Below are positions 2,676 to 48,964 of a stretch of DNA of 64,000 bases, piece after piece. Both the position numbers and the translations under genes were made by a program. The notes beneath the pieces were generated by a model. It saw nothing but the letters and a program-made list of their open reading frames with translations. It had not been told where the DNA came from and did not search any database. Source of the DNA: Patescibacteria group bacterium (lineage in GTDB: Bacteria; Patescibacteriota; Patescibacteriia; Buchananbacterales; UBA6539). The stretch lies in contig JAQTYZ010000003.1 of assembly GCA_028688055.1 (NCBI GenBank), forward strand, positions 1,191-65,190, read 5' to 3'. Numbering within the stretch: position 1 is the first letter of the stretch; every line of letters begins with the position of its first letter.

Positions 2676-3839
2676 ATGGAAAAACCCACAAAAATAATTT
2701 TTACCTTAGTCCTGGGCGTTTTTTTATTGGGTTTGCCGCTGTTGGTTTTGGCCGCTGATAATCAGAGTAATATCACAGTCGCCGCCGGCGATATTATTGA
2801 TGGTAATTTTATTAGATTTGGTTCTAATATCCAGATTGATGGTGCGATTAACGGCGATGTTTTGGTCGCTGGTAGTAATATTGATATTAACGGACCAGTG
2901 GCCGGAGACATTATTGCTTTTGGCAGCAATATTAAAATAAATAGTTCAGTCGGCGGTAGTGTTCGAGCGATTGCTCCTAACATTGAAATTAACGGCGAGG
3001 TTCAAAGAAATATTTGGCTGTTGTCGACGAATGTAAAATATGGTGAGCAAGCGACAACGGGGTGGGATTTTGATGCGATAACATCAGCGGCTGAATTGAA
3101 GGGCAAAATTATAGGTAGTGCCAAAATTAAGGCTGATAACGTTGTCTTGGCCGGAGCAATTGCCAAAAATGCCGATGTGTCTTTGGGTCGCAGTGGAAAA
3201 TTATTGATTGAGTCAACGGGCCTGGTCGACGGTAATTTAATTTATCGGGCGAAAGATCAGACGCAATTAGAGCTTAAAGACGGCGGCAAGGTAACGGGAA
3301 CGACTGAACGCCAAGATCTAGAATTAAGTTCTGCTATTGATTGGAAAAAAACATTTAATGTAGCTAATTTATTTTTACAAACTATTTTATTTTTTGGCCT
3401 CTTGGTCATCGGCGTAATTATTATTTCGCTCGTCCCCAAAATTATGTTGAATTTCAGCGAGGTGTTTGAGCAAACACCAGCCAAAGCGCTTGGTTGGGGC
3501 CTGGTTTATCTGATGGTGACGCCGCTAGTTTCGTTGTTATTATTTTTCACCATCATTGGCATCCCCTTGGCGATAATTTTGTTGATTGGATTTACTATTA
3601 GTCTTTATCTGGCCAAGATTTTAGCTGGCTTTGGCATCGGACTTTGGCTGTTTAATAAAATTAAAGGCGAAAATAAATATCAGGGTTCTTTAATTTGGCC
3701 GATGGTGGTTGGATTGTTAGTTGTAACCATTATTGGTATGATTCCCATCATCGGTTGGGCCGTGAAGTTTTTATTAATATTATGGTCGCTGGGCGCGCTT
3801 CTAATTGTTAAAAAAGATATTTTGCGCGAATATCGCTAA
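2676..3839 (+). CDS. signal-anchored membrane protein with bactofilin-like (polymer-forming beta-helical) repeats and a C-terminal multi-TM domain
   Basis: N-terminal signal/TM, then repeated GD(I/V)xxG(S/N)NIxI(N/D)G units (DUF583/bactofilin-like), then about 4 hydrophobic helices in the C-terminal third. Confidence 0.6.
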   Translation: MEKPTKIIFTLVLGVFLLGLPLLVLAADNQSNITVAAGDIIDGNFIRFGSNIQIDGAINGDVLVAGSNIDINGPVAGDIIAFGSNIKINSSVGGSVRAIAPNIEINGEVQRNIWLLSTNVKYGEQATTGWDFDAITSAAELKGKIIGSAKIKADNVVLAGAIAKNADVSLGRSGKLLIESTGLVDGNLIYRAKDQTQLELKDGGKVTGTTERQDLELSSAIDWKKTFNVANLFLQTILFFGLLVIGVIIISLVPKIMLNFSEVFEQTPAKALGWGLVYLMVTPLVSLLLFFTIIGIPLAIILLIGFTISLYLAKILAGFGIGLWLFNKIKGENKYQGSLIWPMVVGLLVVTIIGMIPIIGWAVKFLLILWSLGALLIVKKDILREYR

Positions 3840-3845
3840 ATAAAT

Positions 3846-5183
3846 ATGACATCAATCAACAGTAAAATTTTTAAGTCTTATGATATTCGCGGAATTTATC
3901 CGGATGAATTAAATGAAGAGGCGGCTTACAATATTGGGCGCGCGCTAGCGCGGAAGGCTAACGCCGAGTATATTGTGGTCGGGCGTGATATGCGTCTTTC
4001 GGGCGCGGCGTTGAAAGAAAAATTAATTGCCGGCATCACGGATGAGGGAACGGGTGTGCTGGATATTGGCTTAGTGCCGATTGATGCAGTTTATTTTGCG
4101 GTTGGCATTTTAGGGCATGGGGCCGGAGTGATGATAACGGCTTCTCATAATCCCAAAGAATATAACGGTTTTAAAATGGTGCTCAAGGGGATGAATTTTG
4201 TGCGCGTTGAGGAACTAAAAAATGAGTTGTTAAACTTACCGGAATTAAGTAGTAACAAAAAAGGCGAAGTTAGAGAACAGGACCTGATGGATGGATACCT
4301 CAATCACGTTTTGTCTTTTGTTGAACTAAAAAAATTAAAGCCGTTTAAAGTAGTCGTTGATGCCGGTAATGGCATGGCGGGCAAAGTGATGCCCTTGTTA
4401 GCACCGCATTTGCCAATTGAAATGATTCCTTTAAATTTTGAACTTGATGGAAATTTTCCGGCGCACCCGTCAAATCCGCTCCTGCCAGAAAGTCAGGTGC
4501 AAATTACCAAGGCCGTGGTTGAAAATAAGGCTGACTTTGGGGTGATTATTGATGGTGATACTGACCGTTTATTTTTTGTTGACGAAACTGGTCAATTTGT
4601 TCGCGCTGATTTTGCCTTGTTAATTTTAGCTCGTGAGTTTCTTAATCGCGAACCGGGCAAGGGTATTGTTTATAACGTCGTTTGTTCAAAAATCGTGCCG
4701 GAAAAAATCAGCGAGTGGGGCGGCGTGCCATTACGATCGAAAGTTGGGTATATTTATATTAGTGCAATGATGCGGGAAAATGATGGGATTATGGGTGGTG
4801 AGTTTTCGGCTCATTATTCTTTCCGTGATAATGCTTTTGCCGATTCGGGTTTTATTGCGTTACTGATTTTACTGCAACTTATCTCTCAAGATGGCCGCCG
4901 ACTGTCGGAAATTATTGGTGAATTCAATAAGTATTTTAAGACTGATGAAATAAATTTGCCAATTAATGATCGGGAGACGATTATTAATAAAATCAAAGAT
5001 AAATACCGCACTGGTAAACAAGATGAGTTGGATGGCTTGACTGTTGAATATGAAAACTGGTGGTTTAATGTGCGAGGTTCAAATACCGAACCGTTGTTGC
5101 GCGTGACGGTTGAAGCGGCAACTGAAGAATTATTAAATAGCCAGACCGCCGAGTTGGTTGATTTTGTGAAGGCTAATATTTAA
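3846..5183 (+). CDS. phosphomannomutase/phosphoglucomutase (alpha-D-phosphohexomutase family)
   Basis: 445 aa with the active-site loop TASHNPKEYNGFKMV, a Mg-binding DGDTDR motif and GEFSAHY. Confidence 0.88.
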   Translation: MTSINSKIFKSYDIRGIYPDELNEEAAYNIGRALARKANAEYIVVGRDMRLSGAALKEKLIAGITDEGTGVLDIGLVPIDAVYFAVGILGHGAGVMITASHNPKEYNGFKMVLKGMNFVRVEELKNELLNLPELSSNKKGEVREQDLMDGYLNHVLSFVELKKLKPFKVVVDAGNGMAGKVMPLLAPHLPIEMIPLNFELDGNFPAHPSNPLLPESQVQITKAVVENKADFGVIIDGDTDRLFFVDETGQFVRADFALLILAREFLNREPGKGIVYNVVCSKIVPEKISEWGGVPLRSKVGYIYISAMMRENDGIMGGEFSAHYSFRDNAFADSGFIALLILLQLISQDGRRLSEIIGEFNKYFKTDEINLPINDRETIINKIKDKYRTGKQDELDGLTVEYENWWFNVRGSNTEPLLRVTVEAATEELLNSQTAELVDFVKANI

Positions 5184-9530: not shown

Positions 9531-9570
9531 TGAAAAAAATGGGAGAACCGAAGCGAAGTTCGGTTCTCCC
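9531..9570 (-). terminator. rho-independent terminator (perfect palindrome plus U7 on the minus strand) between the small ORFs and trpS
   Basis: gggagaaccgaag cgaagttcggttctccc forms a 13-bp perfect stem. The minus strand then reads AUUUUUUUC. Confidence 0.65.
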
Positions 9571-9612
9571 TGGCAGCGAGTGAGGTGTGGACTAAAGAGC
9601 GATTGGAATTGG

Positions 9613-9798
9613 CTATTGTGCTGGCGGCAGGTTTTTTTTGCCGACTTCACACGCAGGATTAATGCAACAGGCGATTTCTTCGGTTCGAGGACTATTCCCC
9701 CAGCCATAACTACCAACGGTAGCGCTGGCAGTACCGTCCATTGGTTCTTTGCAGGCGTAACAATATTCAGCTGGTTTGATTTCTTTACCCCAGGCCAT
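9613..9798 (-). CDS. small cysteine-rich protein (61 aa) with Cys-x2-Cys and Cys-Cys-x4-Cys
   Basis: Strong RBS AAGGAG 6 nt before GTG-ATG. Translation MAWGKEIKPAEYCYACKEPMDG...EEIACCINPACEVGKK. It sits downstream of the T-box-controlled terminator. Confidence 0.45.
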   Translation of the reverse strand: MAWGKEIKPAEYCYACKEPMDGTASATVGSYGWGNSPRTEEIACCINPACEVGKKNLPPAQ

Positions 9799-9813
9799 CA
9801 CAGTTTCTCCTTG

Positions 9814-10020
9814 TTAGTCTTCGTTGCGACTTAGTTCGACTCCACATAATCTGCAAGAGGTGACATCAGCGCTTGACCAGGCGCCGTTAGCCTTCCTAAT
9901 GGTGATTTGCTTGCGGTGGCGGCAATGTTGCTGCTGCCAATGGTGAATCCGATATTTAAGGTGCAATAGGGATGCCGCGAGATCTTCCAGCAATCTGATA
10001 ATAATCGAAACGGCTTTCAT
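9814..10020 (-). CDS. small His/Cys-containing protein (68 aa)
   Basis: AAGGAG RBS 6 nt upstream of the ATG at 10020. Translation MKAVSIIIRLLEDLAASLLHLKYRIHHWQQQHCRHRK...CRLCGVELSRNED. It is the first gene after the T-box terminator. Confidence 0.45.
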   Translation of the reverse strand: MKAVSIIIRLLEDLAASLLHLKYRIHHWQQQHCRHRKQITIRKANGAWSSADVTSCRLCGVELSRNED

Positions 10021-10047
10021 ACTTTTCTCCTTGATTGAGTTATCCAA

Positions 10048-10400
10048 ACAAAAAATCCCGTCCTTTAGGCATAACGAAATTATGCGCAAAGGACGGGATA
10101 ATACCCGCGGTACCACCTTTGTTACTAAAAAAATCCGTGTCAGTACGGATCTCTAGTCTCTTACTGACTCTGCCTCCCAACTGGGACGACATCAGTTGCT
10201 CGTGATTACGGCGAGCGGACCCGGACTTCCACTAATGCAGAAGTCACCTCAGCGTGCCCAACCCCCGAACGCTTTTGGCTAACGGGGACACGCTTCAACG
10301 GTTTTGTAATTTTTAAGGTGTTTCCAGTTTAGCCCAAGACAAATTTTCTGTCAAGCAAAGATTTAGCCTTGGGGGCATAACTGGTTTGGCCATCCCAGCA
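10048..10400 (-). promoter_or_regulatory. T-box riboswitch leader (tRNA-sensing antiterminator) with an intrinsic terminator at 10048-10095
   Basis: The minus-strand RNA contains ...UAGUAACAAAGGUGGUACCGCGGGUAUUAUCCCGUCC..., which matches the T-box consensus AANNNGGGUGGNACCGCGG. It is immediately followed by a 20-bp terminator hairpin (AUCCCGUCCUUUGCGCAUAA/UUAUGCCUAAAGGACGGGAU) and U6. GCGGG in the T-box can pair with CCCGU in the terminator 5' strand to form the antiterminator. A Stem III-like hairpin GAUCCGU-ACUGAC-ACGGAUU lies just 5' of it. Confidence 0.75.
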
Positions 10401-10460
10401 CCAAAACTCGTGAACAATCTTCATTATTTTTTGAGGTAGTTTGGTGCTGGGCTAATTATT

Positions 10461-16469: not shown

Positions 16470-17696
16470 ATGAAGTGGAATAAAGTTTTAATTTTATTAA
16501 TGTTGGCGGTTGTTCTATCCACCCCAGCAATTAGCCTAGCCGCCAATGAGTATCAAGTAACTGACCCTGGTGGTAGCGTGCTGAATGTTAGGTTTAATAA
16601 TGATACCGGTCATTGGGAGGTGCAGCATCAGCCTTACTATGGGACTAATTCTAATTGGACTGACGTAAACTCCAGCTGGGAATTGAGCCGTTTTACCCGA
16701 GACGAATGGCCAATACTTAAAGCTCTCAAGGGGCGCAATTTTGATTGGGGAAACCGATATTTTAGCGCTTTATTCTCAAATGACACAGGTTATAGTGTGC
16801 CTAAGTCCGTAGATAAGTCCGCCGCCACTGCCCCGCAGCTAAAAGTTGAAATTGGCGGCAGTATTGTTAGTTTGTCGGCGGTCAATTGTACTTCGGGCCA
16901 AGATTGTTCAATTCCTTGGATCGGTGAATATATGAAGCAAGTTTATATCTATTTAGTCGCCGTTGCCGCGATTTTGGCAACGGTGATGATAATGATCGGT
17001 GGTTTTTTGTGGTTGACCTCAGGCGGCAGTCCGGACCGAATTAGTCGCGGTAAAGAGTTTATCGTCAGCTCAATCAGCGGTATGCTGTTAGCATTATTTT
17101 CCTACATTATTTTGTATTCCATCAATCCTAACCTAATAAATCTTAAACCAATTGTTATTAAAGTGTCCGGTGATTTAGCAGTGCAGGCCCAAAATCGATC
17201 TAATGCGCAAGCGGCGACACAGTCAGGCCCTACGGCGCTCGGGGCTGGTTGTCCCGATGCCACTGAATCGGCTCAAGGCTATACGGCCGTGCTTACTTCT
17301 TATGCTCGTCCAACCCCTCAAAATTTTACCTCGGATGACGCTTTTCTTTGTGCGGTTGGTTTAAATTGTTCTTGTCCTAGCGGTACTGGACGTGACAATG
17401 GTCGTTCGTGTTCTTTCGGTAGTTTGACGTGGCATCCGTGTGTATCCTTTGATGCTAATACAACGCCATATTGTAATCAGACCGCCAGTGGTCAAGCGCC
17501 AAGAGTGGGTACGGTGGCGGCCGATCCCTGTTTCCCGTTTGGCACGCAGCTTTGTATTAATGGCGAGACTTACACCGTAACTGATCGCGGCAGTGCTATT
17601 ACTGGCCGTCATTTTGATTTATGGTCTGATGATTATTCGGCTGCTACTCGTGCTTATAGCAATAGCGCTCAGGTTACTGGCGGCCCTTGTCCTTAA
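16470..17696 (+). CDS. secreted protein carrying a hairpin module (paralog B) plus a C-terminal RlpA/3D-like (double-psi beta-barrel) putative cell-wall lytic domain
   Basis: Same CxxGxxC-PWIGEY and AILATVMIMIGGFLWLTSGGSPDRISRGKEFIVSSISGMLLALFSYII core. C-terminal Cys-rich region with GETYTVTDRGSAITGRHFDLWSDDYSAA, which resembles the RlpA/MltA 3D-domain motif (..NDRGP...IDLS.AA). Confidence 0.6.
   Translation: MKWNKVLILLMLAVVLSTPAISLAANEYQVTDPGGSVLNVRFNNDTGHWEVQHQPYYGTNSNWTDVNSSWELSRFTRDEWPILKALKGRNFDWGNRYFSALFSNDTGYSVPKSVDKSAATAPQLKVEIGGSIVSLSAVNCTSGQDCSIPWIGEYMKQVYIYLVAVAAILATVMIMIGGFLWLTSGGSPDRISRGKEFIVSSISGMLLALFSYIILYSINPNLINLKPIVIKVSGDLAVQAQNRSNAQAATQSGPTALGAGCPDATESAQGYTAVLTSYARPTPQNFTSDDAFLCAVGLNCSCPSGTGRDNGRSCSFGSLTWHPCVSFDANTTPYCNQTASGQAPRVGTVAADPCFPFGTQLCINGETYTVTDRGSAITGRHFDLWSDDYSAATRAYSNSAQVTGGPCP
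16965..17100 (+). repeat. copy B of the roughly 137-nt paralog core repeat
   Basis: See copy A at 15831-15967. Confidence 0.8.
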
Positions 17697-20730: not shown

Positions 20731-23193
20731 ATGGCCAAAAAATACGAGCCTAGTAAAATTGAAGCGAAGTGGCAAAAATTTTGGGAAAAAAATAAAACTT
20801 TTGCGGCGTCAGATAAACAGCGTAAGCCTAAATTTTATTGTTTAATTGAATTTCCTTATCCCTCCGGTGAGGGACTCCACGTCGGCCATCCGCGCCCTTA
20901 TACCGCTTTAGATATTTTAGCGCGCAAGCGTCGGATGCAAGGTTATAATGTTTTATACCCAATCGGTTTTGACGCTTTTGGTTTGCCATCAGAAAATTAC
21001 GCGATTAAAACTGGCATCCACCCGTCTGTTATCACCAAAAAAAATATTGCCACTTTTACTAAGCAACTCAAATCACTTGGTTTTTCTTTCGATTGGGATC
21101 GTGTGATAACTACCACTGACCCGGCCTATTACAAGTGGACGCAATGGATATTTTTGCAAATGTTTAAAAATGGCCTAGCCTATAAGGCTAAGATGACCAT
21201 TAATTGGTGTCCCTCGTGTAAAATCGGCTTAGCCAACGAAGAGGTAATTGACGGCAAGTGCGAACGGTGTGGCACGTCAGTTGAAAAAAAAGAGAAAGAG
21301 CAATGGATGTTAAAAATTACCAAGTATGCCGACCGCTTGATTAATGATTTGGCCGACGTTGATTATTCGGAAAAAATTAAAATTCAGCAAATTAATTGGA
21401 TTGGTCGGAGCGAAGGTATTAACTTTAAAGAAAAAGTTAAGGATTTAGACCTTGAATTTGAAGTTTATGATTCAATTCCGCAAACTTTTTTAGCTCAAAC
21501 GTTTACCGTGATAGCCCCGGAACATCCACTGGTCCAAAAATTAATTGCCGGGACTAAATATGAAACGCCGGTTAAGGAATTTGTCGCAAGAATTAAGAGC
21601 CGTAAGGCAGCCAATCGATTTGTAATCGAAAAAGAGCTGGAGGGTATTTTTACCGGAAGATACGTTGCTAATCCGTTTGGTACTGGTGATTTGCCGATTT
21701 GGGTTGCCAGTTATGTTTTGGCTGACTATGGTACCGGCATCGTTAATTGCAGTGCTCATGATGAGCGTGATTTTGCCTTTGCTAAAAAATATGACCTGCC
21801 TTTAAAAATTGCCTTATTACCAACTGATAAAGATCATGCGGAAAAAGTTAAAAGTCTAGCAGAATTTTATCGAGCGCCTGATGGTGTTATCCAAGAACCG
21901 CTAGAATTTAAGGGGTTACGTTGGGATGAAGCTCGTGAACCGATAATTAAATACATTGAGAGTAAGGGCTATGGTCGGCGGGCGGTTAACTATAAAATTC
22001 GTGACTGGGTTTTTTCGCGCCAGCGTTATTGGGGTGAACCAATCCCGATGGTTTATTGTGAAAATTGTAAAGCCACCGGTGCGTCGGCCACAGGCTGGAT
22101 TCCAGTACCGGAAAATGATTTACCGGTCCAGTTGCCGAACGTCGAAAAATATGAGCCCTCTGACAGCGGCGAATCGCCTTTGGCGGCGATCAGCGCTTGG
22201 GTCAATATTAAGTGTCCGGTTTGTAACGCCAAGGCCAGACGCGAAACTGATACGATGCCAAATTGGGCCGGCTCTAACTGGTATTTTTTGCGTTATATTG
22301 ATCCAAAAAATCGGAAGCATTTAGCGGATCCAAAAAAACTTGGCTATTGGCTAACGGTTGATTGGTATAATGGCGGTATGGAACACACCACTCTTCATTT
22401 ATTATATTCACGCTTTGTTTACAAATTTTTGTATGATATTAAGGCCGTGCCTAAAGCCAAGGGTCCAGAGCCTTATGCCAAGCGAACGTCACACGGTTTA
22501 ATTTTAGGCGCTGGTGGTGAAAAAATGTCTAAATCAAGAGGCAATGTCGTTAATCCTGATGAGGTTGTTAAAGCCCAGGGCGCCGATACTTTACGTTTGT
22601 ATGAGATGTTTATGGGGCCATTTGAACAGGCTATTCCTTGGGATGCTCAAGGGGTTATGGGGGTCAGGCGTTTTATCGAAAAAGTTTGGAATATTTATCA
22701 GGGCCAAGTCAAAATTGAAAAAAAATGTTCGGAAGCATTGATAACCTTGACGCATCAAACAATTAAAAAAGTCACTGATGATATTGAATCGCAAGACTAC
22801 AACACGGCCGTTTCGGCTCTGATGATTTTAACCAATAAAATTAGCGACGAAAAAATAATGAATAAATTTGTCGCTGTCGCGTTGGTAAAATTATTAGCCG
22901 TTTTTGCGCCTCACGTTGGCGAAGAGCTTTGGCAAATGCTGGGCAATAAAAAATCAATTTTAGCCGCGGCTTGGCCGGAGTACGATGAGGCTAAGTTGCT
23001 AAATAAAAACACTAATTTGGTAATACAGGTCAATGGTAAAGTGCGGGATATGATCTTGGTTAGGGCCGACCTTACTGAGCAGGAAGCGGAAAAACTGGCC
23101 AAGCAAAGTGAAAAAGTTTTAAAGTTTATTGAGAACAAAAAAATTGTTAATACCATCTTTGTTCCGGGGAAATTAATTAATTTGGTTATCTAG
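20731..23193 (+). CDS. leuS: leucine--tRNA ligase
   Basis: 820 aa with HVGHPRPYTALDILARKRRMQGYNVLYPIGFDAFGLP (HIGH region), a CP1 editing domain and KMSKS. Confidence 0.95.
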   Translation: MAKKYEPSKIEAKWQKFWEKNKTFAASDKQRKPKFYCLIEFPYPSGEGLHVGHPRPYTALDILARKRRMQGYNVLYPIGFDAFGLPSENYAIKTGIHPSVITKKNIATFTKQLKSLGFSFDWDRVITTTDPAYYKWTQWIFLQMFKNGLAYKAKMTINWCPSCKIGLANEEVIDGKCERCGTSVEKKEKEQWMLKITKYADRLINDLADVDYSEKIKIQQINWIGRSEGINFKEKVKDLDLEFEVYDSIPQTFLAQTFTVIAPEHPLVQKLIAGTKYETPVKEFVARIKSRKAANRFVIEKELEGIFTGRYVANPFGTGDLPIWVASYVLADYGTGIVNCSAHDERDFAFAKKYDLPLKIALLPTDKDHAEKVKSLAEFYRAPDGVIQEPLEFKGLRWDEAREPIIKYIESKGYGRRAVNYKIRDWVFSRQRYWGEPIPMVYCENCKATGASATGWIPVPENDLPVQLPNVEKYEPSDSGESPLAAISAWVNIKCPVCNAKARRETDTMPNWAGSNWYFLRYIDPKNRKHLADPKKLGYWLTVDWYNGGMEHTTLHLLYSRFVYKFLYDIKAVPKAKGPEPYAKRTSHGLILGAGGEKMSKSRGNVVNPDEVVKAQGADTLRLYEMFMGPFEQAIPWDAQGVMGVRRFIEKVWNIYQGQVKIEKKCSEALITLTHQTIKKVTDDIESQDYNTAVSALMILTNKISDEKIMNKFVAVALVKLLAVFAPHVGEELWQMLGNKKSILAAAWPEYDEAKLLNKNTNLVIQVNGKVRDMILVRADLTEQEAEKLAKQSEKVLKFIENKKIVNTIFVPGKLINLVI

Positions 23194-27035: not shown

Positions 27036-30000
27036 ATGCCAAAAATTAATATTTTTTCAAAAATAATTTCAGTCGGCCAAAAGTTATTTTTTGTTTGGTC
27101 ACAAAAAACTTTGACGGTTTTGGTCATTTTTAATATGTTGGCGACATCATTGGCACCAGCCTTGGCTTATCCGGTAACAGTTGATACCTCAAGTCTACAG
27201 CCGTTAGCTAGTGCGGTTGGTAATGCCTTTTTAAAATTGACCTTGACCGACGTTGCCCACGCTCAGCCATACGCCAGTGGGTATGTTATGCCGGCTAACC
27301 CGATGTCGATAATAGTCAGTGATGATTTTACTCATACTAACCTAATTTATAATGAAACAGCGGCTGAGGCTCGCAGTGCGGCCCAGATCGCTTTAGACAA
27401 AGCAACTCAAGGCTTGAAGGAATCAGCTTTTTTGGCGGCCAATCAGACTTTGAATGCGATGATTAATAGTTTTGCCTATGATGTTGCGACTTGGTTAGCT
27501 AGTGGCGGCAAGGGCCAGCAGCCAATGTTTTTTAACCAAGGCTGGGGTGAATATATGAAATCGTTGGTTGATGACGCGGCGGGAAATTTTATTGAGTCAT
27601 TGGCTGGTAATTGGTTAGACTTTAATGTTTGTGAGCCGATTAATCCTTCGTTAAAAATCAGTATCGGTCTAGGCTTGTCCGATCTGCAGCGGCCGCGGAA
27701 GCCCCAATGTAGTTTAAGTGATATGGTTCATAACTGGAGCTCATTGATTAACGATAAGAATTTTTTGAATCGCTTTGATGTTATCTATGATCCTGATCAA
27801 AATGATATCGGCATCGCTTTTAGTATTTTTAATAAATATAACCAGGAAATTTCCGACGAGCTTGACCAGGGCATAAAAGATCGAACTGAAGGCGGTGGTT
27901 TTAAGGCGGTGGTGGCAAAAATTTCCAAAGCGATTAAAACGCCGTCGTCGTTGGTTTTTTCGCAGGCGACTCGATTGACATCAGAACAGATTGACCAATC
28001 AGACAAAAAGGTTCAGTTTGGACCAATCGTCCTCAACGCGGTTGATACTTTTGTTAGCACGTTAATCGGCAAGCTGTTCCAGCGTTTGTTTAAAGAAGGT
28101 TTAGCCGGTGACTCAACGTCAAATAATCCGTCGGCCAGCGGTTATGGTGCTAACTTATTAAGCAGTTTGCTAGGTAAGTTGGGCCAGAATAATAATGATT
28201 TATATAGTGCCAACCAGACTAGTCTCCAGGGGCAGTCCTCGGCCCAAGTGCGTTTCCTTGATTTATTGACGACTGGCAATAATGATAGTAAGCCGATGGA
28301 TGTTTTGACTAAATTGACTTTTTGTCCTGATCCAAAAAATCCGGGACCGGACGAATGTGTTATTTTGCCGTCTTTTGCGCAAGCCGTTCAACAGGGGATG
28401 ACCTTAGCCGAAGCGATTAATCGCGGTTTAATTGACGGCAATGCGCCTTTTGGTCGACAAAGCAATGATCCAACCGCCCTTTATAGTGGCTTGCCGTACC
28501 GGAGTGTTGTTATTTTAAGAACTTATCGAATTGTGCCGGTAAGCTGGGAAGTCGCCGCTAAGGCAATCAATAAATTCGATGGCGGTAAAAATATTAGCTT
28601 GAATGATTTAATTGCTCAATATCAAGATCCGACGGCTGAATATTATGATTTGGTTAACCCGAATTGGGTGCTGGTGGCGCCGGATCATTTGTGTAAGGAA
28701 ACCGGTTTTGGTCCAAAAATTTTATATAACGAAAGTGTTAATGGTTTTGACGCCAATCAAAATGGAAGTTTTAATGATACCGGTGATATTCAGCCTAATC
28801 GCTTAATCGGTCGGGCTGAATATTGTGCTGACTATCAGTCCTGCATTCAAAAAAATGATGATGGTTCCTGCCAGTATTATGGTTATTGTGCTGAAGAGCG
28901 GCCGGTTTGGGATTTTAGTGGTGGTAGTTGCAAGCCTTATTATAATACTTGTCAAACTTTTCAGGCGCCAGCAGGCGATACCGTTAGTTATTTAAAGAAT
29001 AGCTTAAACTATAACGGGTGTAGCGCTGATAATGCCGGTTGTCAGTGGTACTGTCAGATTTTAAATCCAATTAATAATGTTTGGACTTGCCAGAATCAGA
29101 CGGAGCGGGTGCTGAAGGCCTGTTCTCAGAATGGCGGCTGTAGTGTTGCGGCAACTTGTACTTTAAGTCAAGGTGAGACAGCTTGTACCGATGCTAACTC
29201 GTCAGTTAATCTAACGATCGCTTCAGCTTGTGACTCTGGTTCGCGGTGGTGGAACGATGCCACTAGCAAGTGTGATGTTGATAGTGCTTGTACTATTGAA
29301 AAAGGGGCGGTCAGTTGTTCAACGGACAGTTGCTTTGAACAAGCCAATCTGTTAGCTAATGGCAGTTTCGAAACCCCGGCGGCCAACCCCGGCGGCTTGG
29401 CTAGCGGCTGGACCACCGACAGTGGAACTTTGGATTTTTTTGATCGGGTTAGTGGGGCCACGGAAAAAATTTACGATGGAAAGAGCAGTATTAGGTTTTA
29501 TACCGCCGGTCAGTTAATCGGCGCTGGCGACGTTAAATCAATTACCTCAAGTTCGTTAGCTTTAGCGACTTCTGGAACCTACACTTTTTCCGCTCGCGTT
29601 TACAGCAAGTTAAATGCCGGCAACATTACTTTGTCAGTTTATGACAGTAGCGGTCAGATTGCCTCGCGGGTGATTAGCGATAAAAATCGTTGGCAAATTG
29701 TTAGTTTTGATTTTACTACCAGCCAAGGTTCAGTTTGGGTCGTCGCTAGCATTGCCAGTCAAGGAACATTTTTAAGCGGCACGGCTTGGTTTGACGATTT
29801 CCGAATTACGCCCAGCTGTGTGATTAATCCGGTCACGCTGAATTTAGTTGGAACAGTTGAGCAAAATGAAAGCAAAATTCATTTGGATCGCGATGCTTCA
29901 GATTGTCCGTCGGAGGCGGCCGGCTGTTCGCAATTTATTAGAACCATTCCAAATTCGGGGACCAATATTGTTGATAATTCCAGCTTTGAGGATTGGCCAA

Positions 30001-33000
30001 ACCCAACCAGTCTGCCAACGGGTTGGAATCTTGGCGAAAATAATTCGGCGATAACAACCGAAAAGGTAAACGACAGTCCAATTGATAACTATAGTTTGAA
30101 AATAAATAACGATGGCGTTAATGGCACTTGTCGTGATTTTGATAGTGGCGTTTTGTCAGCGATGAAACCTAATACGACTTATCGGGTTTCCTTCTGGGCC
30201 AAGAGTGATTCCGATTTAGCCGAAGCCGACGGCCAGTGGTACGCTGAAATATTATCCAATCACGTGCCTAATGATTATTATTGTAGTCTGGATAATACGG
30301 CTAATTGTGATCCGTTTAATGAAGCAACTTGTAGTGCTGTTGGTAAGGGTGTTTGTGTTGGTGACTGGCAATTGCTACAAATTTCGTCAAATCAATATTT
30401 ATCATTGACCGCCAACTGGCAGCGATTTGTTTTAAATCCAATTACCACCCGAGCGGCTGGGGTTGATTTTAAATTTGCAATTGATAATTGTTCAACCGAT
30501 ACTGCTAATCCGATCTATCTTGACGGTGTTCAGATTGAAGAAGTTTCGACCAACAATCCCGTGCTGACTGATTATAAAGATTACGGTCAGACTAATTTAA
30601 CTTATCTCAAAAAACCGCCGGTTTATTTAAATTGTACCGGGGACTCAACTGATTCTGACGCTTGCGCCAACTATGCGCCATATTGTAAACCCGAAGAAGT
30701 CGGCTGTCAGGCGTTCGCGCCGCTGAGTGGCGGAGCGAAGGTCCCTGCCGTGATCAGACCAACTGATTTTTGTCCGGCCGAATGTGTTGGCTACCAAGCC
30801 TACAAGCAATCGGCGACGCCATTCGAAACGCAGCAAACTTTAGAATACTTTATTTCGTCAACCGCTAAACAATGCAACGCGTCAGCCGCCGGTTGCGATG
30901 AATTTACCAACTTAGATGAAGTGACTCAAGGTGGTGAAGGACGGGAATATTACAGTTACTTAAGGTTGTGTCAGAAGCCAGCTGATGTAGGCGCGAGCTG
31001 CCAGAGTTTTTACACTTGGCAGGGTTCCGATGAAACTGGTTTTCAGTTAAAAACTTACAGTTTGACCGGTGTGGCCGATGCCGCTGGACATCCAATTCCG
31101 ACACCAGCCATTAGTAATATTGATAGTTGGCCTGATCGGTGGTGCAGTGATAAGACGCTGGACGCGAATGGTTTGCCAAATTGTTGCGATGCTGCTGACG
31201 ACTTGGTTGACAATCCTTTTTGCAAACAGTTTTTTGCCGGCGATGGCTCCGTTTCTTATCAAATTTATGATAATACAATTAGTTGCTCGGACGACTGTCA
31301 TCCGTATCGAAAAACCTCATTAGGCGAAGATCCAACGGTGGCCGAGACGAATTGTAATGAGAGTCATGGGGTGTGGGACAACGGCGCTTGCGTTTATCAA
31401 GCGATTCCGGGGCAGGGCTTAAGTTGTTCCGCCAATTTTGCCGGCTGTCGTGAATATCGTGGCAACCAGAGCGGTAACATTTACACCGCCTTGACCGATA
31501 ATTTAGAATCGGGCGAAACCGCTAATTGGATTGACGGCGTTATTAGTAGTGAGGCTTTGAGTGTTGGCGGTCATTCCTTAAAGAGTACTGACAACGGCCT
31601 TGGCGGTCAGCAGGCGGCAACCTTTGTTGGTGATTTAGGAACTGTTTGTAGTGATAATTTACCGGCCTGTTCAGCCACGGTGACCACAAATTGTTATGAT
31701 CAAAGTACTATTAGGTGCTGGGTAAATACCGGTGGTCGATCGTGCCGCGTTAATGTTGGCGATCGTTATTGTGGTGTGGCGGGAAATACCGTTAAGAAAA
31801 GCAAGTCTTATATTCTAAATTTTTGGGCCAAAGCCAGCTCCGCTGTCCAAAACTTCACCGTGGAAATTGGTGATCGAGCAATACCAGTTAATAATATTAC
31901 GATTGGCCAAAGTAATCTCAATGCTGATTGGGGTTATTATTCAATGGGTCCATTTACCGTTGATGATAAGCCGGCTTTTGATCTGACCTCGGCTCAGCTT
32001 AGATTTAAATTGGGTACCGCTGTTACTTTTTATCTTGATAATATCCAGCTCAAAGAAGTTACTGGCCACACGTATGTTATAAAAAATTCATGGCAGACGC
32101 CGATGAGCTGCGACACTAATCCCTATCTTAATCCGCCGATCGCCGCGCCGCAGTATATGTTAAATTGTCAGCAGTATCGCAGTTCCACTGGGGCGATTTA
32201 TAATTTGAAATCATTTGATTCATTGTGTCGCGAGACGGCGGTTGGTTGCGAGGCGATGATCGATACTTATAATTCAGCTTCGCCGGTTGAACAGAAATTT
32301 AATCCCAACGACACCTTATCTGATGTTACTATCCCAGCTGATAAATTGGTTTACCTGGTTAATCGTCCGGAATTTCAATGTGCTTCAACGGTCAAGGGTT
32401 GTGAGGCCGTTGGGTTACCATCATTAAATACTTCTAATAATGTTACCGCGTATAGTACAGCCTATAAAATAAATGATCCTGACAAGTACGACACTATCCT
32501 TTGTAAAAATGAAGAAGTTGGTTGTCAGGAGTATGTTTCGGAAACTGGGTCCGATTACTTTAAGGCTCCGGGCGATAAGGTTTGCGAATATCGAACCATC
32601 CCGGGAACGACCAATTTAGGTTGGTTTATCAGAGGCTCAGTTAGTAATAATCCAGATTGTCCCGTTACTCAGCCGAGCGTTGGGGCGCTTCATCCTGATG
32701 GCAAAAAAGGTTTTGCCGGCTTATGTCCCAGTGAATATAACACGTGCACCCAATTTATCGATCCGATCAATAACGTTGGTAAAAATTTGCTTTATAACGG
32801 TAACCTCTCGGACATCAATAATGACGGCACGCCTGAAGGCTGGGATATTTTAGCAAGCCAGGATGGTCTGGTACAGTCTTTTAAATTAAAAGCGAACACG
32901 TCATATACCCTTAATTTTGTCGCCGACATTAATAACATCAGAGGCAGTTCAGCTGATTTGACGTTCACCGTCAATCATTGTCCCGGCATTTTTTCGTATG

Positions 33001-36000
33001 ATCATTCTTTGATTTATGATCAGGCTGATAATACCTTAATGAAAATGCCGGAGGATACCTATAACCAAGATAACCGCACCAGCGATAATACCAGTCCGGA
33101 TTATATTGAAGGTCTGTCTAACTTTCGTCAATATTCGGCCCGATTCTCGGTACCGGAAGACCAGGATTGTCAGGTTCAGGTTAAGTTGGCCGGTGCCACG
33201 GTTGCGGCTCTAAAAGCAAAGATTAAACAAGTTGGTTTAAGGGAAACCGGTGTTTACTATGCCCTGGGCAATTCGGTTGATAAAATCGGTTGTAACGGAA
33301 TCGTCAATCCGGAAAAGGGTTGCGTTTTATTCAATGATCGCAGTGGTGTCAATTATAAATTAGGTGAAGACGATATCAGCTATTTAGCGTTTGACGCCGA
33401 TGTCAGTGGCCCGGGAGTAAACGGTGGCGTTGGGGTGACCGACTGTGCTGGTAATTGCGATGCCAATGCGGTGATTAATGTTCGTCCGGATCGAACTTGT
33501 GAATCATGGTTAAATTGTAGTGTCGAAGGAACTTACCTCGATAACAAAGGTATTGCCAGAAAATATTGTGCACAAATTGGTTTGTGCGATCGGATGGATG
33601 CCAGCGGCCAATGCACCAATCAGGTCATTGGTAATAAGCAGTCATTGTTTGGTGATCCGGAACAAATTAAAAATTTGAGCGGTTATAGCAGCCCTGGCCT
33701 CATCTTTACCCGAGGAATTTGTGTTGCCCCGGCGGACAATAAGGGTATGACTTGTAACCAAAATTCGGATTGTGCTACTGACGCCAGCGGGGTTTGTGAT
33801 AAAAGTGTTTCGGGGGTGATGTCGTTTGAACAGATGATTCAACAAGGGCAGTCGTTCCGAGTCCCAAATGGTAATTTTGAATTAGCTTTTGGCGCCACCA
33901 CCGAACCAATCGGTTGGTCAACGATTATTGAAGGAACCAATACTGAACCGGTTGAATGGTATGACTATAAATTTAGAGTTGACCGGGATGTTAATAATGT
34001 GATTGAAGGTACCGGTTACCTGCGACTAAATTCTTTCTGGGAAACACAGTCTGAAGAAATTGATGTGGCGGAAGGCGAATTAACAACTATCTCGGCGATG
34101 ATTAATACGCAATTTCTCGAGAATCCGGCTAGTCAGTTAAATCCGACCGGTCAAGCTAAGGCTCAGATTTTAGTTAAAGCTTTGGATAGCAACGGTGCGG
34201 CGGTCGCCATTAAAGATGCCAGTGATGTTGCTTATCCGATGAAATATAATGGTTGGCAGTTGTTACAAAATGCCAACACGGCCTTAGAGGCTCAGGCCGG
34301 TTTGGATTGGCAACAGAAATCATTTACTTTTAAGATGCCAATTGGCGCGGTTAAATTTAAAATCAAGTTGAGTAATTATATTGATGAAGCCAAGTGCATT
34401 GATGCGGAAAGGTATAATCGTAAAGCCAGTAATTGTTCACTTGGTGGCTACTCTTTATTTGATTCAATTTCGTTAAAGCCGATTTTGAAAGTCAGAAATG
34501 AATTACCCGATGATTCGGTTGCGCGCAGTTGCCGTTTGTACCCGACGTCCGATGCGCTGGCCTGCGTGAATATGAAGGATAACGCTGTTTACTTTGGCCA
34601 GTACGGATACTGTGTTACGACGGATCCGCAAAATCCCAGCCAGTGTTTGCAATGGTGGCCGGTTGATCAAATTCAAGGTGAAACCTTGGATGAAGTAACG
34701 TCGGGTTATAACGATCGCGTGCCGCTGGATTATTGCACGCAAAAAAAAGATGTCGTCATTCGCGTTGGGGCCAATGCAACGTTGACGACGCTTGATTTGG
34801 GTAACTCAAATTTGTCAGGCAATTATACTTCAATGGTTAATTCTAGCGGTCAGCAAATGAAATTTTCTCAATTTAATATCAATGATGATTATCGAGCCCT
34901 GTTCCGCTATCCGTATGTTCAGTATTTACAAGTTCATGGTTCAATATCGGGAGGATCATTATTAAGTGGTGCGGGACTTGTCCCGACCATTTTTATCCCC
35001 ATCCCTTATGGTGCGAGGTTGTACAAAGATCATACCTGTTGGAAATTTATTAGTATTTTAGATAATCCAGGTTTTTCGGATATTGCCAACGGGGCGCTTT
35101 CCGGTACAAATGATTTTATTACTAATGGTTTATTCAGTAACCCTCTTTTGAGTGGCATTTTGGGTGATGTAACTTTTTGGCGACCAGGTGACCCAGGACA
35201 CGAAAGTGATGATTATGGTTCTTATTGTTGGAGTACTTCGCCGGGTGAAGACTGGGGTGGTTTTGCCGCTCTGGGCCTTGGCATATCAATTCCGCTTGGC
35301 GATTTTGGTATTGGGGCAGTTGTGTCACTCGGGTTCCCTTATAAGATGGCGCAAGCAACATCAATCTTGACGAGTTTTAATACCGAGCTAAGTAAATTGG
35401 TTGGAACCATGGTTGGTTTGGCCGGACCGGTGGCTGCCAAAATTATTACGGATCAAGATGAGTCAACTGGTAATACCACCAGCGATCCGGTGCCGGACTT
35501 AGAGGGTGATATTCTCGGCATTTCGGCGCAAATGCTGGGTCAAACAAATGGCGCGACCGCTCTCTTAGCGCCGGTTAGAGTTAACGGCGACGTGCCGGTG
35601 AAATATTGTTCCGAACTTGTTAGAGTCGTGACGTCAGCCGGCTCAAACCGAGGTTTTGCTAATCGCTTAACGGCCGGTAGTGGCTTTTTACTTAACGATA
35701 CGATTGACGGCCAACCGCGGCAATATCAATATTATAAACCGTTTGATTTTAGAGAATTGTTAGCCTATCCTAATCCAATGGATTATTATTCTTCCGATTT
35801 TCAGCCCTTTGGCGGTCTCGTGGCACCGACTAACAGTCAGTATCCGACCGCGTGGGACAGTAAATCAAGTCAGTATCGCCAGCCGTTATTTTTTGAGCCG
35901 CCGATGATGACCAGTTACAAAGCACCTTATCAGGCCCGAATGGGTGAAACACATACGGCCGGAAGCATTGAGCAAATTTTTGGCAAAAGCTATGGTATTT

Positions 36001-36644
36001 GGCATTGGGTCTGGAGTTCCGACAGTCTTGGTCAGCCGTTTGACGCTAATCACGGCGGACAATATGAAATTGGACCGATGGGTTATTGCGCTAGCGATAT
36101 AAACATAGCTTGTGCCGTCGATGCCGATTGCGGGTCAGGGTCGTGCTCGTTTACCCTAGATAAAGTGACCGCACCTTGGGATGTAATCGTGACGGCAGGA
36201 GATTGCCCTGGCAACATTAGACCGACTGACGGCACGCTTTGTCGCGTTTTACCGATAATCAGTAATATTAAAGTTAATGATAAGCCGCAAGTTGATATTC
36301 GACAATCAGGGTTGGTGAAGTTGACTTTCACGGTTAAAGTCGACCCGGATCAGTTGCCAATTACCGGTTATTCGGTTGATTGGGGCGATGGCAATACGAC
36401 TATTGTCAACGGTGTTGTTTTGCGAAATCGGGTGAATCCGGATAATCCTTTTGCCCTGTATCATCTTTACACCTATTGGTCGGCGTTTCAGGCCATCGGT
36501 CCTTATAATCTACCGGTTTGTGTTGGTGATAATTGTGTGGCGAAAATAAGAATTCGCGCTAAAGATAATTGGGGTGCGGAAAGCGGGACTGCCAGTAATC
36601 CGTGGATAACAATGAGTGGTAACATAACTATTTATAAAAAATAA
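27036..36644 (+). CDS. giant (3202 aa) signal-anchored surface protein with cysteine-motif repeats, multiple CBM4_9-like beta-sandwich modules and a C-terminal PKD-like domain
   Basis: A single 9.6-kb ORF with an N-terminal hydrophobic anchor (TLTVLVIFNMLATSLAPALA). At least 9 copies of a (A/V)GC(Q/E/D)x(F/Y/M)-type Cys motif (NAGCQWY, EVGCQAF, AAGCDEF, FAGCREY, AVGCEAM, VKGCEAV, EVGCQEY, YNTCQTF, YNTCTQF). Several NG(S/N)FE...GW... starts typical of CBM_4_9 modules. A PKD-like YSVDWGDGNTT near the C-terminus. Confidence 0.85.
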   Translation: MPKINIFSKIISVGQKLFFVWSQKTLTVLVIFNMLATSLAPALAYPVTVDTSSLQPLASAVGNAFLKLTLTDVAHAQPYASGYVMPANPMSIIVSDDFTHTNLIYNETAAEARSAAQIALDKATQGLKESAFLAANQTLNAMINSFAYDVATWLASGGKGQQPMFFNQGWGEYMKSLVDDAAGNFIESLAGNWLDFNVCEPINPSLKISIGLGLSDLQRPRKPQCSLSDMVHNWSSLINDKNFLNRFDVIYDPDQNDIGIAFSIFNKYNQEISDELDQGIKDRTEGGGFKAVVAKISKAIKTPSSLVFSQATRLTSEQIDQSDKKVQFGPIVLNAVDTFVSTLIGKLFQRLFKEGLAGDSTSNNPSASGYGANLLSSLLGKLGQNNNDLYSANQTSLQGQSSAQVRFLDLLTTGNNDSKPMDVLTKLTFCPDPKNPGPDECVILPSFAQAVQQGMTLAEAINRGLIDGNAPFGRQSNDPTALYSGLPYRSVVILRTYRIVPVSWEVAAKAINKFDGGKNISLNDLIAQYQDPTAEYYDLVNPNWVLVAPDHLCKETGFGPKILYNESVNGFDANQNGSFNDTGDIQPNRLIGRAEYCADYQSCIQKNDDGSCQYYGYCAEERPVWDFSGGSCKPYYNTCQTFQAPAGDTVSYLKNSLNYNGCSADNAGCQWYCQILNPINNVWTCQNQTERVLKACSQNGGCSVAATCTLSQGETACTDANSSVNLTIASACDSGSRWWNDATSKCDVDSACTIEKGAVSCSTDSCFEQANLLANGSFETPAANPGGLASGWTTDSGTLDFFDRVSGATEKIYDGKSSIRFYTAGQLIGAGDVKSITSSSLALATSGTYTFSARVYSKLNAGNITLSVYDSSGQIASRVISDKNRWQIVSFDFTTSQGSVWVVASIASQGTFLSGTAWFDDFRITPSCVINPVTLNLVGTVEQNESKIHLDRDASDCPSEAAGCSQFIRTIPNSGTNIVDNSSFEDWPNPTSLPTGWNLGENNSAITTEKVNDSPIDNYSLKINNDGVNGTCRDFDSGVLSAMKPNTTYRVSFWAKSDSDLAEADGQWYAEILSNHVPNDYYCSLDNTANCDPFNEATCSAVGKGVCVGDWQLLQISSNQYLSLTANWQRFVLNPITTRAAGVDFKFAIDNCSTDTANPIYLDGVQIEEVSTNNPVLTDYKDYGQTNLTYLKKPPVYLNCTGDSTDSDACANYAPYCKPEEVGCQAFAPLSGGAKVPAVIRPTDFCPAECVGYQAYKQSATPFETQQTLEYFISSTAKQCNASAAGCDEFTNLDEVTQGGEGREYYSYLRLCQKPADVGASCQSFYTWQGSDETGFQLKTYSLTGVADAAGHPIPTPAISNIDSWPDRWCSDKTLDANGLPNCCDAADDLVDNPFCKQFFAGDGSVSYQIYDNTISCSDDCHPYRKTSLGEDPTVAETNCNESHGVWDNGACVYQAIPGQGLSCSANFAGCREYRGNQSGNIYTALTDNLESGETANWIDGVISSEALSVGGHSLKSTDNGLGGQQAATFVGDLGTVCSDNLPACSATVTTNCYDQSTIRCWVNTGGRSCRVNVGDRYCGVAGNTVKKSKSYILNFWAKASSAVQNFTVEIGDRAIPVNNITIGQSNLNADWGYYSMGPFTVDDKPAFDLTSAQLRFKLGTAVTFYLDNIQLKEVTGHTYVIKNSWQTPMSCDTNPYLNPPIAAPQYMLNCQQYRSSTGAIYNLKSFDSLCRETAVGCEAMIDTYNSASPVEQKFNPNDTLSDVTIPADKLVYLVNRPEFQCASTVKGCEAVGLPSLNTSNNVTAYSTAYKINDPDKYDTILCKNEEVGCQEYVSETGSDYFKAPGDKVCEYRTIPGTTNLGWFIRGSVSNNPDCPVTQPSVGALHPDGKKGFAGLCPSEYNTCTQFIDPINNVGKNLLYNGNLSDINNDGTPEGWDILASQDGLVQSFKLKANTSYTLNFVADINNIRGSSADLTFTVNHCPGIFSYDHSLIYDQADNTLMKMPEDTYNQDNRTSDNTSPDYIEGLSNFRQYSARFSVPEDQDCQVQVKLAGATVAALKAKIKQVGLRETGVYYALGNSVDKIGCNGIVNPEKGCVLFNDRSGVNYKLGEDDISYLAFDADVSGPGVNGGVGVTDCAGNCDANAVINVRPDRTCESWLNCSVEGTYLDNKGIARKYCAQIGLCDRMDASGQCTNQVIGNKQSLFGDPEQIKNLSGYSSPGLIFTRGICVAPADNKGMTCNQNSDCATDASGVCDKSVSGVMSFEQMIQQGQSFRVPNGNFELAFGATTEPIGWSTIIEGTNTEPVEWYDYKFRVDRDVNNVIEGTGYLRLNSFWETQSEEIDVAEGELTTISAMINTQFLENPASQLNPTGQAKAQILVKALDSNGAAVAIKDASDVAYPMKYNGWQLLQNANTALEAQAGLDWQQKSFTFKMPIGAVKFKIKLSNYIDEAKCIDAERYNRKASNCSLGGYSLFDSISLKPILKVRNELPDDSVARSCRLYPTSDALACVNMKDNAVYFGQYGYCVTTDPQNPSQCLQWWPVDQIQGETLDEVTSGYNDRVPLDYCTQKKDVVIRVGANATLTTLDLGNSNLSGNYTSMVNSSGQQMKFSQFNINDDYRALFRYPYVQYLQVHGSISGGSLLSGAGLVPTIFIPIPYGARLYKDHTCWKFISILDNPGFSDIANGALSGTNDFITNGLFSNPLLSGILGDVTFWRPGDPGHESDDYGSYCWSTSPGEDWGGFAALGLGISIPLGDFGIGAVVSLGFPYKMAQATSILTSFNTELSKLVGTMVGLAGPVAAKIITDQDESTGNTTSDPVPDLEGDILGISAQMLGQTNGATALLAPVRVNGDVPVKYCSELVRVVTSAGSNRGFANRLTAGSGFLLNDTIDGQPRQYQYYKPFDFRELLAYPNPMDYYSSDFQPFGGLVAPTNSQYPTAWDSKSSQYRQPLFFEPPMMTSYKAPYQARMGETHTAGSIEQIFGKSYGIWHWVWSSDSLGQPFDANHGGQYEIGPMGYCASDINIACAVDADCGSGSCSFTLDKVTAPWDVIVTAGDCPGNIRPTDGTLCRVLPIISNIKVNDKPQVDIRQSGLVKLTFTVKVDPDQLPITGYSVDWGDGNTTIVNGVVLRNRVNPDNPFALYHLYTYWSAFQAIGPYNLPVCVGDNCVAKIRIRAKDNWGAESGTASNPWITMSGNITIYKK

Positions 36645-48871: not shown

Positions 48872-48964
<93 letters not shown>

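Follow-up and report, generated by a model that had tools for sequence, protein, structure and literature searches.

A predicted tryptophan-specific T-box with small-protein cargo between rnj and trpS in Patescibacteria

T-box riboswitches, as presented in PMC10482949, fall into four classes, of which Classes III and IV mostly regulate the initiation of translation. For T-boxes which act upon transcription, reviews describe a long Stem I as being needed for fast tRNA capture, and PMC7583486 describes an elbow-binding platform as being essential. An older survey places T-boxes among Firmicutes, Actinobacteria, Chloroflexi, and Deinococcus-Thermus along with a few Proteobacteria, and full-text literature searching found no paper joining T-boxes with Patescibacteria, the candidate phyla radiation (CPR), or Parcubacteria. 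Considered here is a T-box that is found between rnj (RNase J) and trpS (tryptophan--tRNA ligase) within 64 kb of DNA, ‘the window’, from a Patescibacteria metagenome-assembled genome (MAG). Coordinates have been re-read from the sequence, and all features of the T-box locus are on the minus strand.

That a T-box is present at this rnj-trpS locus, i.e., as something beyond a chance match, is confirmed. That this T-box is, jointly, an attenuating riboswitch, one specific for tryptophan (Trp), and one whose cargo is a small protein, is a reading which we hold to be quite probable.

The T-box and its relatives

With Rfam run in E-value mode, the covariance model (CM) of the T-box family, RF00230, matches 10307-10086 from end to end (model positions 1-219), scoring 55.0 bits with an E-value of 5.6e-11 for the region, or 3e-09 when the whole window is tested against all 4227 families. 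A default Rfam scan of the window reports three tRNAs only, that is, no T-box at the gathering cut-off, with the gathering score for RF00230 being 93 bits. The score is lower here because, where the model has a distal Stem I of 76 nt, just 34 nt are aligned. The initial annotation of this DNA had called a T-box at this position and had pointed to this same search, and the call is borne out both by a significant E-value, with Stem I and a UGG specifier located albeit at a score below the gathering cut-off, and by homologous leaders which display covariation.

The leader, of approximately 270 nt, lies between a promoter, P1, and the first of two small open reading frames (ORFs), ORF1. P1 (10354-10326) consists of TTGACA (10354-10349), a 17-nt spacer, and TAAACT (10331-10326), i.e., 10 of 12 matches in a promoter scan, and TTGACA-N17-TAnAnT is kept at the equivalent position across homologous leaders. 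The leader is more stable than shuffled sequences (z = -5.3), and its minimum free energy structure contains the terminator. The T-box sequence itself, AAAGGTGGTACCGCGGG, is found at 10120-10104 and, as had been noted initially, this element overlaps a terminator hairpin (10099-10055) that ends in a tract of six U (T6 in the DNA, 10055-10050). Written as AAAGGUGGUACCGCGGG (10120-10104), it conforms to the conserved pattern, that is, a 7-nt UGGNACC bulge between helices A1 and A2. The antiterminator (10120-10088) thus is made up of A1 (AAAGG/CCUUU), the bulge UGGUACC (10115-10109), and A2 (GCGGG/CCCGU, 10108-10104 with 10097-10093), the last of these being the pairing which had been proposed and to which the A1 pairing may now be added. 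The intrinsic terminator (10099-10050) employs as its 5' strand the 3' half of the antiterminator, followed by the U-tract, such that the two are mutually exclusive. As the terminator is calculated at -28.0 kcal/mol versus -9.3 kcal/mol for the antiterminator, the default state is off.

Eleven leaders can be compared, i.e., that of the window along with ten homologous leaders from Candidatus Buchananbacteria-like MAGs. Common to all are the promoter, K-turn halves, a 5-bp Stem I base helix, a distal hairpin free to vary in both length and sequence, a (G/A)(U/C)UGGG 3' side bulge, a Stem II with YUGC...AGUG loop, a CCGUAAYCA block, a purine-flanked Stem III, the T-box sequence, and the terminator with its U-tract. 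The short Stem I region of the window spans 10298-10247, with Stem I proper at 10293-10252, 3' of P1. Its K-turn halves, UGAAG and UGAGG, flank a covarying 5-bp helix (GCGUG, 10293-10289, with CACGC, 10256-10252), the 3' side bulge is GUUGGG (10262-10257), and the distal portion is a plain hairpin (CCCCG...CGGGG) that is variable in both length and sequence. A distal Stem I platform of interdigitated T-loops, the usual feature of those Class I and II T-boxes which act upon transcription, is absent here. There follows the Stem II hairpin and Stem IIA/B region (10245-10190), consisting of GACUUC...GAAGUC with the YUGC...AGUG loop and, as IIA/B, CGG...CCGUAAUCA. The CM places this region at Stem II and IIA of RF00230, Stem II displays compensatory changes between the window and a related locus, L002 (loci fetched for comparison are referred to by such numbers), and the IIA/B pseudoknot is a putative one. 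Stem III with its flanking purines (AAGAG - Stem III - AA, 10163-10122), which was read directly from the sequence and also aligned by the CM, fits the RRRxG-Stem III-AA motif that is described in PMC7583486. Conserved across leaders are the blocks YUGC..AGUG, CCGUAAYCA, and AAGAG-Stem III-AA.

Covariation supports these folds. Among the 13 pairs of Stem I predicted from eight leaders using RNAalifold, nine have compensatory changes, as do 10 of 22 pairs of the terminator. For the antiterminator, also over eight leaders, 95% of cells are paired, changes on both sides are seen in three of ten pairs, and the pairing exceeds that of all 500 shuffles as well as of all slid registers. Helix A2 has at its base a G.U pair that according to the structural literature serves as the aminoacyl sensor, and seven of the eight leaders keep this pair.

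A further hairpin directly 3' of the rnj stop (10455-10385) had been viewed initially as either Stem I or an rnj 3' element. This hairpin is real (a 12-13 bp stem, 13 bp as first described, with a long loop, no U-tract, and -25.9 kcal/mol), and it is the latter, outside of the T-box, rather than Stem I because it is found upstream of P1. It is not kept in relatives, within which other genes or terminators occupy the same position.

How widespread is the element? A TrpS-based scan, with one genome per species, provided 80 trpS loci, of which L002 is the only one with a homologous leader (RF00230, 37 bits). A strict T-box core regular expression had no match over these 80 loci, L002 having been missed because its core reads GGUGGCAGCGCG. 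Among Patescibacteria trpS loci the gap from rnj to trpS usually is 10-200 nt. Other loci were reached by way of protein, with the encoding contigs of all nine small homologues of ORF2, the second of the small ORFs, being looked up. Rfam in E-value mode detects a T-box in nine of 11 protein-reached loci (27-55 bits); of the remaining two, the contig of L092 ends before the leader, and the element of L083 is seen upon direct reading as well as with model R1 (39 bits). R1, which was built from eight discriminator-plus-terminator sequences, matches the window (89.4 bits), L002, and all of the protein-reached loci, and matches none of the other 79 trpS loci. In all six loci with a contig that is long enough on both sides, a small gene is found between rnj and trpS, and, wherever the contig reaches upstream, the small gene is preceded either by an extra ORF or by 400-700 nt that are unannotated. 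Orthologous loci, to which the initial annotation had looked, provide therefore a two-part answer: The element is absent from most Patescibacteria and is conserved in one clade, always with the small gene.

Certain other candidates were set aside. The motif GGGTGGCACCGCAGG of L049 was judged to be a chance match, as it lacks both terminator and Stem I and is not matched by R1. Matches to L081 and L082 from a DNA-pattern scan of metagenomes are high-GC chance matches. Viral contigs yielded no relative of the small protein.

As a separate observation, GC-rich palindromic hairpins are seen in variable loops of some T-box leaders (L083 2520-3010, L085 2590-3010, L093 2532-3010, and L100 2315-3010), located within distal Stem I, after the K-turn, in the linker, in Stem III, or in the loop of helix A2. 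Examples are GCCUGCCUACCGGCAGG, GUCAUCCUGA...GAAGGAUC, and CCGCCGAAGC...GGCGG, and these resemble small repeated elements.

Amino-acid specificity

The specifier codon is UGG (Trp) at 10260-10258, followed by the purine G10257. UGG plus purine, i.e., UGGG, is invariant over 11 of 11 leaders, with the preceding base being U or C. The discriminator bulge is UGGU in six of these leaders and UGGC in the other five. A bulge U and a bulge C can both pair with G but cannot both pair with A, and the discriminator base of the cognate tRNA thus should be G73. G73 is an identity base of bacterial tRNA-Trp. It had been argued, to the contrary, that UGGU speaks against tRNA-Trp, but that argument fails given UGG in all 11 leaders along with a bulge base that always can pair with G73 and which, as C, cannot pair with A73. 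Context as well is Trp-related, as every locus long enough to show it is within a trpS neighbourhood. As read from its sequence, the T-box is specific for Trp, with tRNA-Trp the predicted binding partner.

Might the element instead be sensing some other amino acid? Leucine (Leu) would be the likeliest, with UUG or CUG read one base upstream of UGG since, with U or C as the preceding base, that frame does consist of Leu codons. There is, too, a tRNA-Leu(CAG) gene just upstream of rnj (12348-12262, minus strand, A73, CCA encoded), and UGGU pairs perfectly with A73. UGGC as found in five of 11 leaders cannot pair with A73, however, which is what the local tRNA-Leu possesses, and UUG and CUG would require different isoacceptors. 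Every leader has UGG at the canonical specifier site, three bases ahead of the closing purine, the genes in question are trpS and TrpB-like rather than Leu-related, and U opposite G73 is frequent in Trp T-boxes (46% according to TBDB; PMC7778990). The window also contains leuS (20731-23193, plus strand, behind a 104-nt gap), for which there is no T-box nor any other Rfam match; the Trp element is the sole T-box of the window. Sensing of Leu, or of another amino acid, consequently strikes us as most improbable, and Trp is retained as the specificity in what follows.

Small-protein cargo and the transcription of trpS

The first genes behind the T-box are two tiny Cys-rich ORFs rather than trpS, as had been annotated initially and as the conserved cassette and gene order indicate. 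ORF1 with its ribosome-binding site spans 10032-9814 (68 aa, PHW95_02745; CDS 10020-9814; AAGGAG 10032-10027), its start being 29 nt past the U-tract of the T-box and the terminator ending 17 nt before the Shine-Dalgarno (SD) sequence. ORF2 with its ribosome-binding site spans 9812-9613 (61 aa, PHW95_02740; CDS 9798-9613; AAGGAG 9812-9807). AAGGAGA precedes both, and their counterparts in every relative likewise have this strong SD. An SD-like core of at least 4 nt is seen in four of the 39 large ORFs of the window (at least 150 aa), and AAGGAG in none of the 39. A plausible explanation is that these strong SDs reflect a need to start translation behind a long, structured leader. Attenuation via Trp codons of the small ORFs was considered and rejected, as W and F alternate at the relevant positions and five of ten family members lack Trp altogether.

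ORF2 falls within a conserved protein family (62-67 aa) that possesses four cysteines, CxxC...G[FW]G...CxNPxC..G.KNL. Searching of 1.84 billion representatives using HMMER yielded nine small homologues (E from 2e-08 to 3e-04, 37-49% identity), with those carrying a taxon label being Candidatus Buchananbacteria. C13, C16, C45, N47, and C50 are invariant in the family alignment (A2), a G-x-G-[FW]-G loop, a G.KNL tail, and an aromatic-Gly N-terminus are conserved in addition, and the four cysteines, length, and strong SD are kept over ten cluster representatives. An AF2 model of ORF2 (mean pLDDT of 73) consists of a beta-hairpin and a short helix. We infer a zinc-ribbon-like protein, one which would bind zinc. 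By the evidence of its sequences, this family is real, and so far it has been seen only in Candidatus Buchananbacteria-like Patescibacteria. All nine representatives are found downstream of a T-box wherever the contig reaches far enough, and the arrangement, with small Cys-rich cargo behind a T-box, is unusual as had been said initially. A word-indexed protein search matched ORF1 and ORF2 solely to themselves and the L002 protein to nothing. Large proteins matched by HMMER (P0003, P0004, and P0013) are repeat proteins whose matches are driven by composition, and they were rejected as relatives of ORF2.

ORF1 has a homologue in the closest relative only, L095/L096, one which is also of 68 aa, collinear, ungapped, in the same place, and 52.9% identical. 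Differences between ORF1 and its L095 homologue number 25, 20, and 36 by codon position, i.e., with modest enrichment at third positions, and correspond to 19 synonymous and 32 non-synonymous codon changes. ORF1 probably is a real, young, and fast-evolving gene that encodes a lineage-specific Cys/His protein. Other Cys-rich ORFs fill the ORF1 slot elsewhere, of 45 aa in L100, of 79 aa in L099, and of 89 aa, as a two-repeat protein, in L002, none with demonstrable homology to ORF2. Kinship with ORF2 of ORF1 itself, of the L002 89-aa protein, and of the L100 45-aa ORF was considered and rejected, the likeness being at the level of motif only (CxxC, G[FW], C.NP.C) and hhalign/HMM comparison insignificant. 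In L099, on the plus strand, a 210-aa protein without family match (437-1069) comes before the small gene, and the 79-aa Cys-rich protein, which weakly matches LITAF-like and TOP3B zinc ribbons, comes after it (1310-1549).

It may be asked whether these ORFs are cargo at all, that is, whether the T-box is instead a relic which formerly controlled trpS directly, with trpS now self-promoted and the intervening ORFs but chance or decaying frames. Relative to L095, ORF1 and ORF2 are indeed just 53% and 39% identical, versus 84.5% for TrpS and 87.7% for RNase J, ORF1 is confined to one lineage, and the cassette is absent from 79 of the 80 species-representative trpS loci. The leader, however, is approximately 85% identical between the window and L095, with all functional motifs kept, and compensatory changes are seen in it among lineages that share just 62-85% identity in TrpS. 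Nor does the coding side look like decay: ORF2 keeps its four invariant cysteines, its length, and its strong SD across the ten cluster representatives, and ORF1, though 47% diverged in its amino acids, has retained its frame, its length, and its SD. A relic we view as highly improbable, and the small proteins are taken to be what the T-box controls.

Between these ORFs and trpS there is, as had been noted, a second intrinsic terminator (9570-9533), the terminator scan revealing a hairpin at 9570-9541 that has a 12-bp stem, seven G-C pairs, and U7. A strong hairpin with U-tract in fact closes the small-gene unit in every related locus. Downstream is trpS (9487-8519; TIGR00233, 323.6 bits; PF00579) and, abutting its start, a putative promoter, P2 (9522-9485), consisting of TTTACT (9522-9517), a 17-nt spacer, TAAACT (9499-9494), 6 nt, and then the ATG at 9487. 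P2 is below the threshold of a consensus promoter scan. The same arrangement, TTTACw-N17-TAAAAT/TAAACT-N6-ATG, nevertheless is kept in L095, L091, L097, L083, and L099; L100 and L093 possess TAAAAT at a longer spacing to the trpS ATG, L002 possesses TACAAT, and relatives without a T-box (L003, L006, and L010) display a similar -10 box abutting the trpS ATG. From these sequences the trpS transcript probably is leaderless, or nearly so, starting from its own promoter, P2. In L100/L101, furthermore, a 414-aa gene is found on the opposite strand between the cassette and trpS, so that the cassette there can regulate small genes only. The closing terminator, the separate trpS promoter, and this gene order together imply that the conserved target of the T-box is the small protein.

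The initial annotation had raised the alternative of a composite leader in which both terminators gate trpS. Under such composite control, transcripts from the strong P1 would partly pass the second terminator upon Trp starvation, thereby lifting trpS expression above a basal level set by P2, with the small ORFs being passengers or setting stoichiometry. In nearly all loci the cassette does directly precede trpS. Internal genes without an SD are normal in this genome, so that trpS could be translated from read-through RNA, and in L083 SerK-like and TrpB-like genes are found behind a similar terminator, 8 nt before the ATG, and seemingly are dependent on read-through. Gating is weakened, however, by a conserved promoter abutting the trpS ATG, with an abutting -10 box also in relatives that lack the T-box, as well as by the L100/L101 order. 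It is weakened as well by the strength of a terminator (12 bp, U7) that no locus lacks, and by a small protein conserved as protein, hence being no mere spacer. Composite control accordingly seems to us doubtful, though deserving of consideration, and regulation of the small genes as a unit of their own is preferred.

A number of observations may be made of the surroundings. The L083 genes just mentioned (3256-5017, plus strand) come after the small gene and encode, respectively, a SerK/SbnI-like (ParB_N-like) protein of 127 aa and a TrpB-like PLP enzyme of 431 aa (NF009057, 736 bits), a pair that looks like Trp salvage from indole plus (phospho)serine. Upstream of the T-box is rnj (12245-10461, with RNase J domains), and the order tRNA-Leu(CAG)-rnj-trpS is common to many Patescibacteria lineages (most loci from L003 to L068). 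In some of the related loci an MFS-half, CM_2-like, or NUDIX gene also comes between rnj and trpS. Particularly, half-size MFS genes (approximately 190 aa) and short chorismate-mutase-like (CM_2) genes are found in relatives between rnj and the T-box promoter (L085 2317-2589, L091 1621-2616, L093 1525-2531, L095 1839-2429, and L100 1733-2314); that interval in the window contains neither, just the rnj 3' hairpin. Elsewhere in the window, on the plus strand, is a type IV secretion-like cluster (16470-17696, 27036-36644, 36705-40136, and 45289-47217) which includes a T4SS pilin domain, a giant ORF of 3202 aa, a 1143-aa TrbL/VirB6-like protein, and a TraG-like ATPase. On the minus strand at 48907-48958, opposite a tRNA-Ser, Rfam has a sub-threshold match to Plastid-psbl-rps4 (37.7 bits) which is taken to be a tRNA artefact.

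Predicted mechanism and comparison with described systems

The following sequence of events is proposed. Transcription would start at P1, the start site here being a prediction, and the leader would fold to give a short Stem I, with UGG displayed in its side bulge, followed by a Stem II domain, a Stem III, and the discriminator. Uncharged tRNA-Trp would pair via its CCA anticodon with UGG and via its 3' end, G73-CCA, with the UGGU bulge, there involving a U.G wobble. Such pairing should stabilize the weak antiterminator, allowing RNA polymerase to read through into ORF1 and ORF2. Given charged tRNA-Trp, the stronger terminator would form instead and transcription would end at 10050. The second terminator then would close the unit, with trpS expressed from its own promoter abutting the ATG.

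Several points weigh against this scheme. The T-box scores under the Rfam gathering cut-off. A tRNA-Trp gene was not found in the window nor in any of the 92 fetched loci, leaving G73 a prediction, and the frame one base 5' of UGG does read as Leu. Because the platform is absent, and is called essential by reviews (PMC7583486), one cannot take for granted that the switch acts upon termination. With most genes lacking an SD, trpS could be translated from read-through of the second terminator. ORF2 has no match in Pfam, NCBIfam, PDB, or the literature, making its role a guess, and for ORF1 neither kinship with ORF2 nor any relative outside of one lineage can be detected.

As to that guess, the small protein might, tentatively, be a Trp-starvation effector, i.e., a regulator or adaptor working upon either Trp supply or TrpRS/trpS. 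One can also speculate, with no greater confidence, that the ORF2 family as a whole represents a new kind of such effector, a zinc ribbon that would be made only given uncharged tRNA-Trp and which would act in trans on Trp supply or on the growth of a host-dependent cell. It might target TrpRS, tRNA-Trp, the adjacent leaderless trpS promoter, or the ribosome. Whatever its target, the specifier would supply these ‘hypothetical proteins’ with a first functional annotation, that of being Trp-starvation induced. An unannotated family of approximately 60 aa whose sole known trait is its predicted production when tRNA-Trp is uncharged may then offer a handle on amino-acid shortage in reduced, host-dependent bacteria. 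The locus also places working-looking T-boxes in Patescibacteria (CPR), and it indicates that the Rfam gathering cut-off hides such elements.

Among described T-boxes, those of Class IV, e.g., Actinomyces odontolyticus ileS (PMC10482949), are similar in their short or intermediate Stem I without an interdigitated T-loop platform, and similar as well in their K-turn, Stem II domain, and standard discriminator. Known Class IV T-boxes, however, are Ile-specific, actinobacterial, mostly based on SD sequestration, and have a synthetase as cargo, whereas here there is Trp, Patescibacteria, and cargo other than a synthetase. Unlike the usual Class IV T-box, too, that of the window has an intrinsic terminator with its U-tract 29 nt before the first start, and the SD is found outside of the switch. 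If the proposed mechanism is correct, then a T-box without an elbow-binding platform can act at transcription termination, and a platform-less Stem I joined with an intrinsic terminator would, as a natural counter-example, directly test the kinetic argument for a long Stem I.

Class I Trp T-boxes, i.e., those of Firmicutes trpS and trp operons along with trpE and trpB-like genes of the Chloroflexi Dehalococcoides (PMC2494555), share with this element the UGG specifier, the UGGN bulge, antiterminator/terminator competition, and association with Trp-related genes (as with the TrpB-like gene downstream in L083). They differ in possessing a long Stem I with elbow-binding platform and in passing the Rfam gathering score, versus a Stem I that here is approximately 40 nt shorter and a score of 55 rather than 93 bits.

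In terms of cargo, the likeness is to Bacillus subtilis rtpA (anti-TRAP), for which the first product of a Trp T-box similarly is a small Cys-rich protein rather than an enzyme or synthetase (PMC2494555, PMC7430163). With rtpA, uncharged tRNA-Trp is turned into a protein signal, and it is to this logic that the locus is likened, i.e., without homology, as the ORF2 family has neither sequence nor fold homology to anti-TRAP. No TRAP (mtrB) domain was seen among the scanned proteins, which come from 64 kb of the genome and were subjected to no TRAP-directed test. If the proposed role is correct, then the ORF2 family would be a functional analogue of anti-TRAP that has evolved independently. For the switch itself, the phylum is one for which a T-box was undescribed in the literature searched and the combination of modules is atypical, but the mechanism is ordinary T-box antitermination. 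With a Class IV-like Stem I joined to an intrinsic terminator, that is, what is seen is a recombination of known modules rather than a new mechanism.

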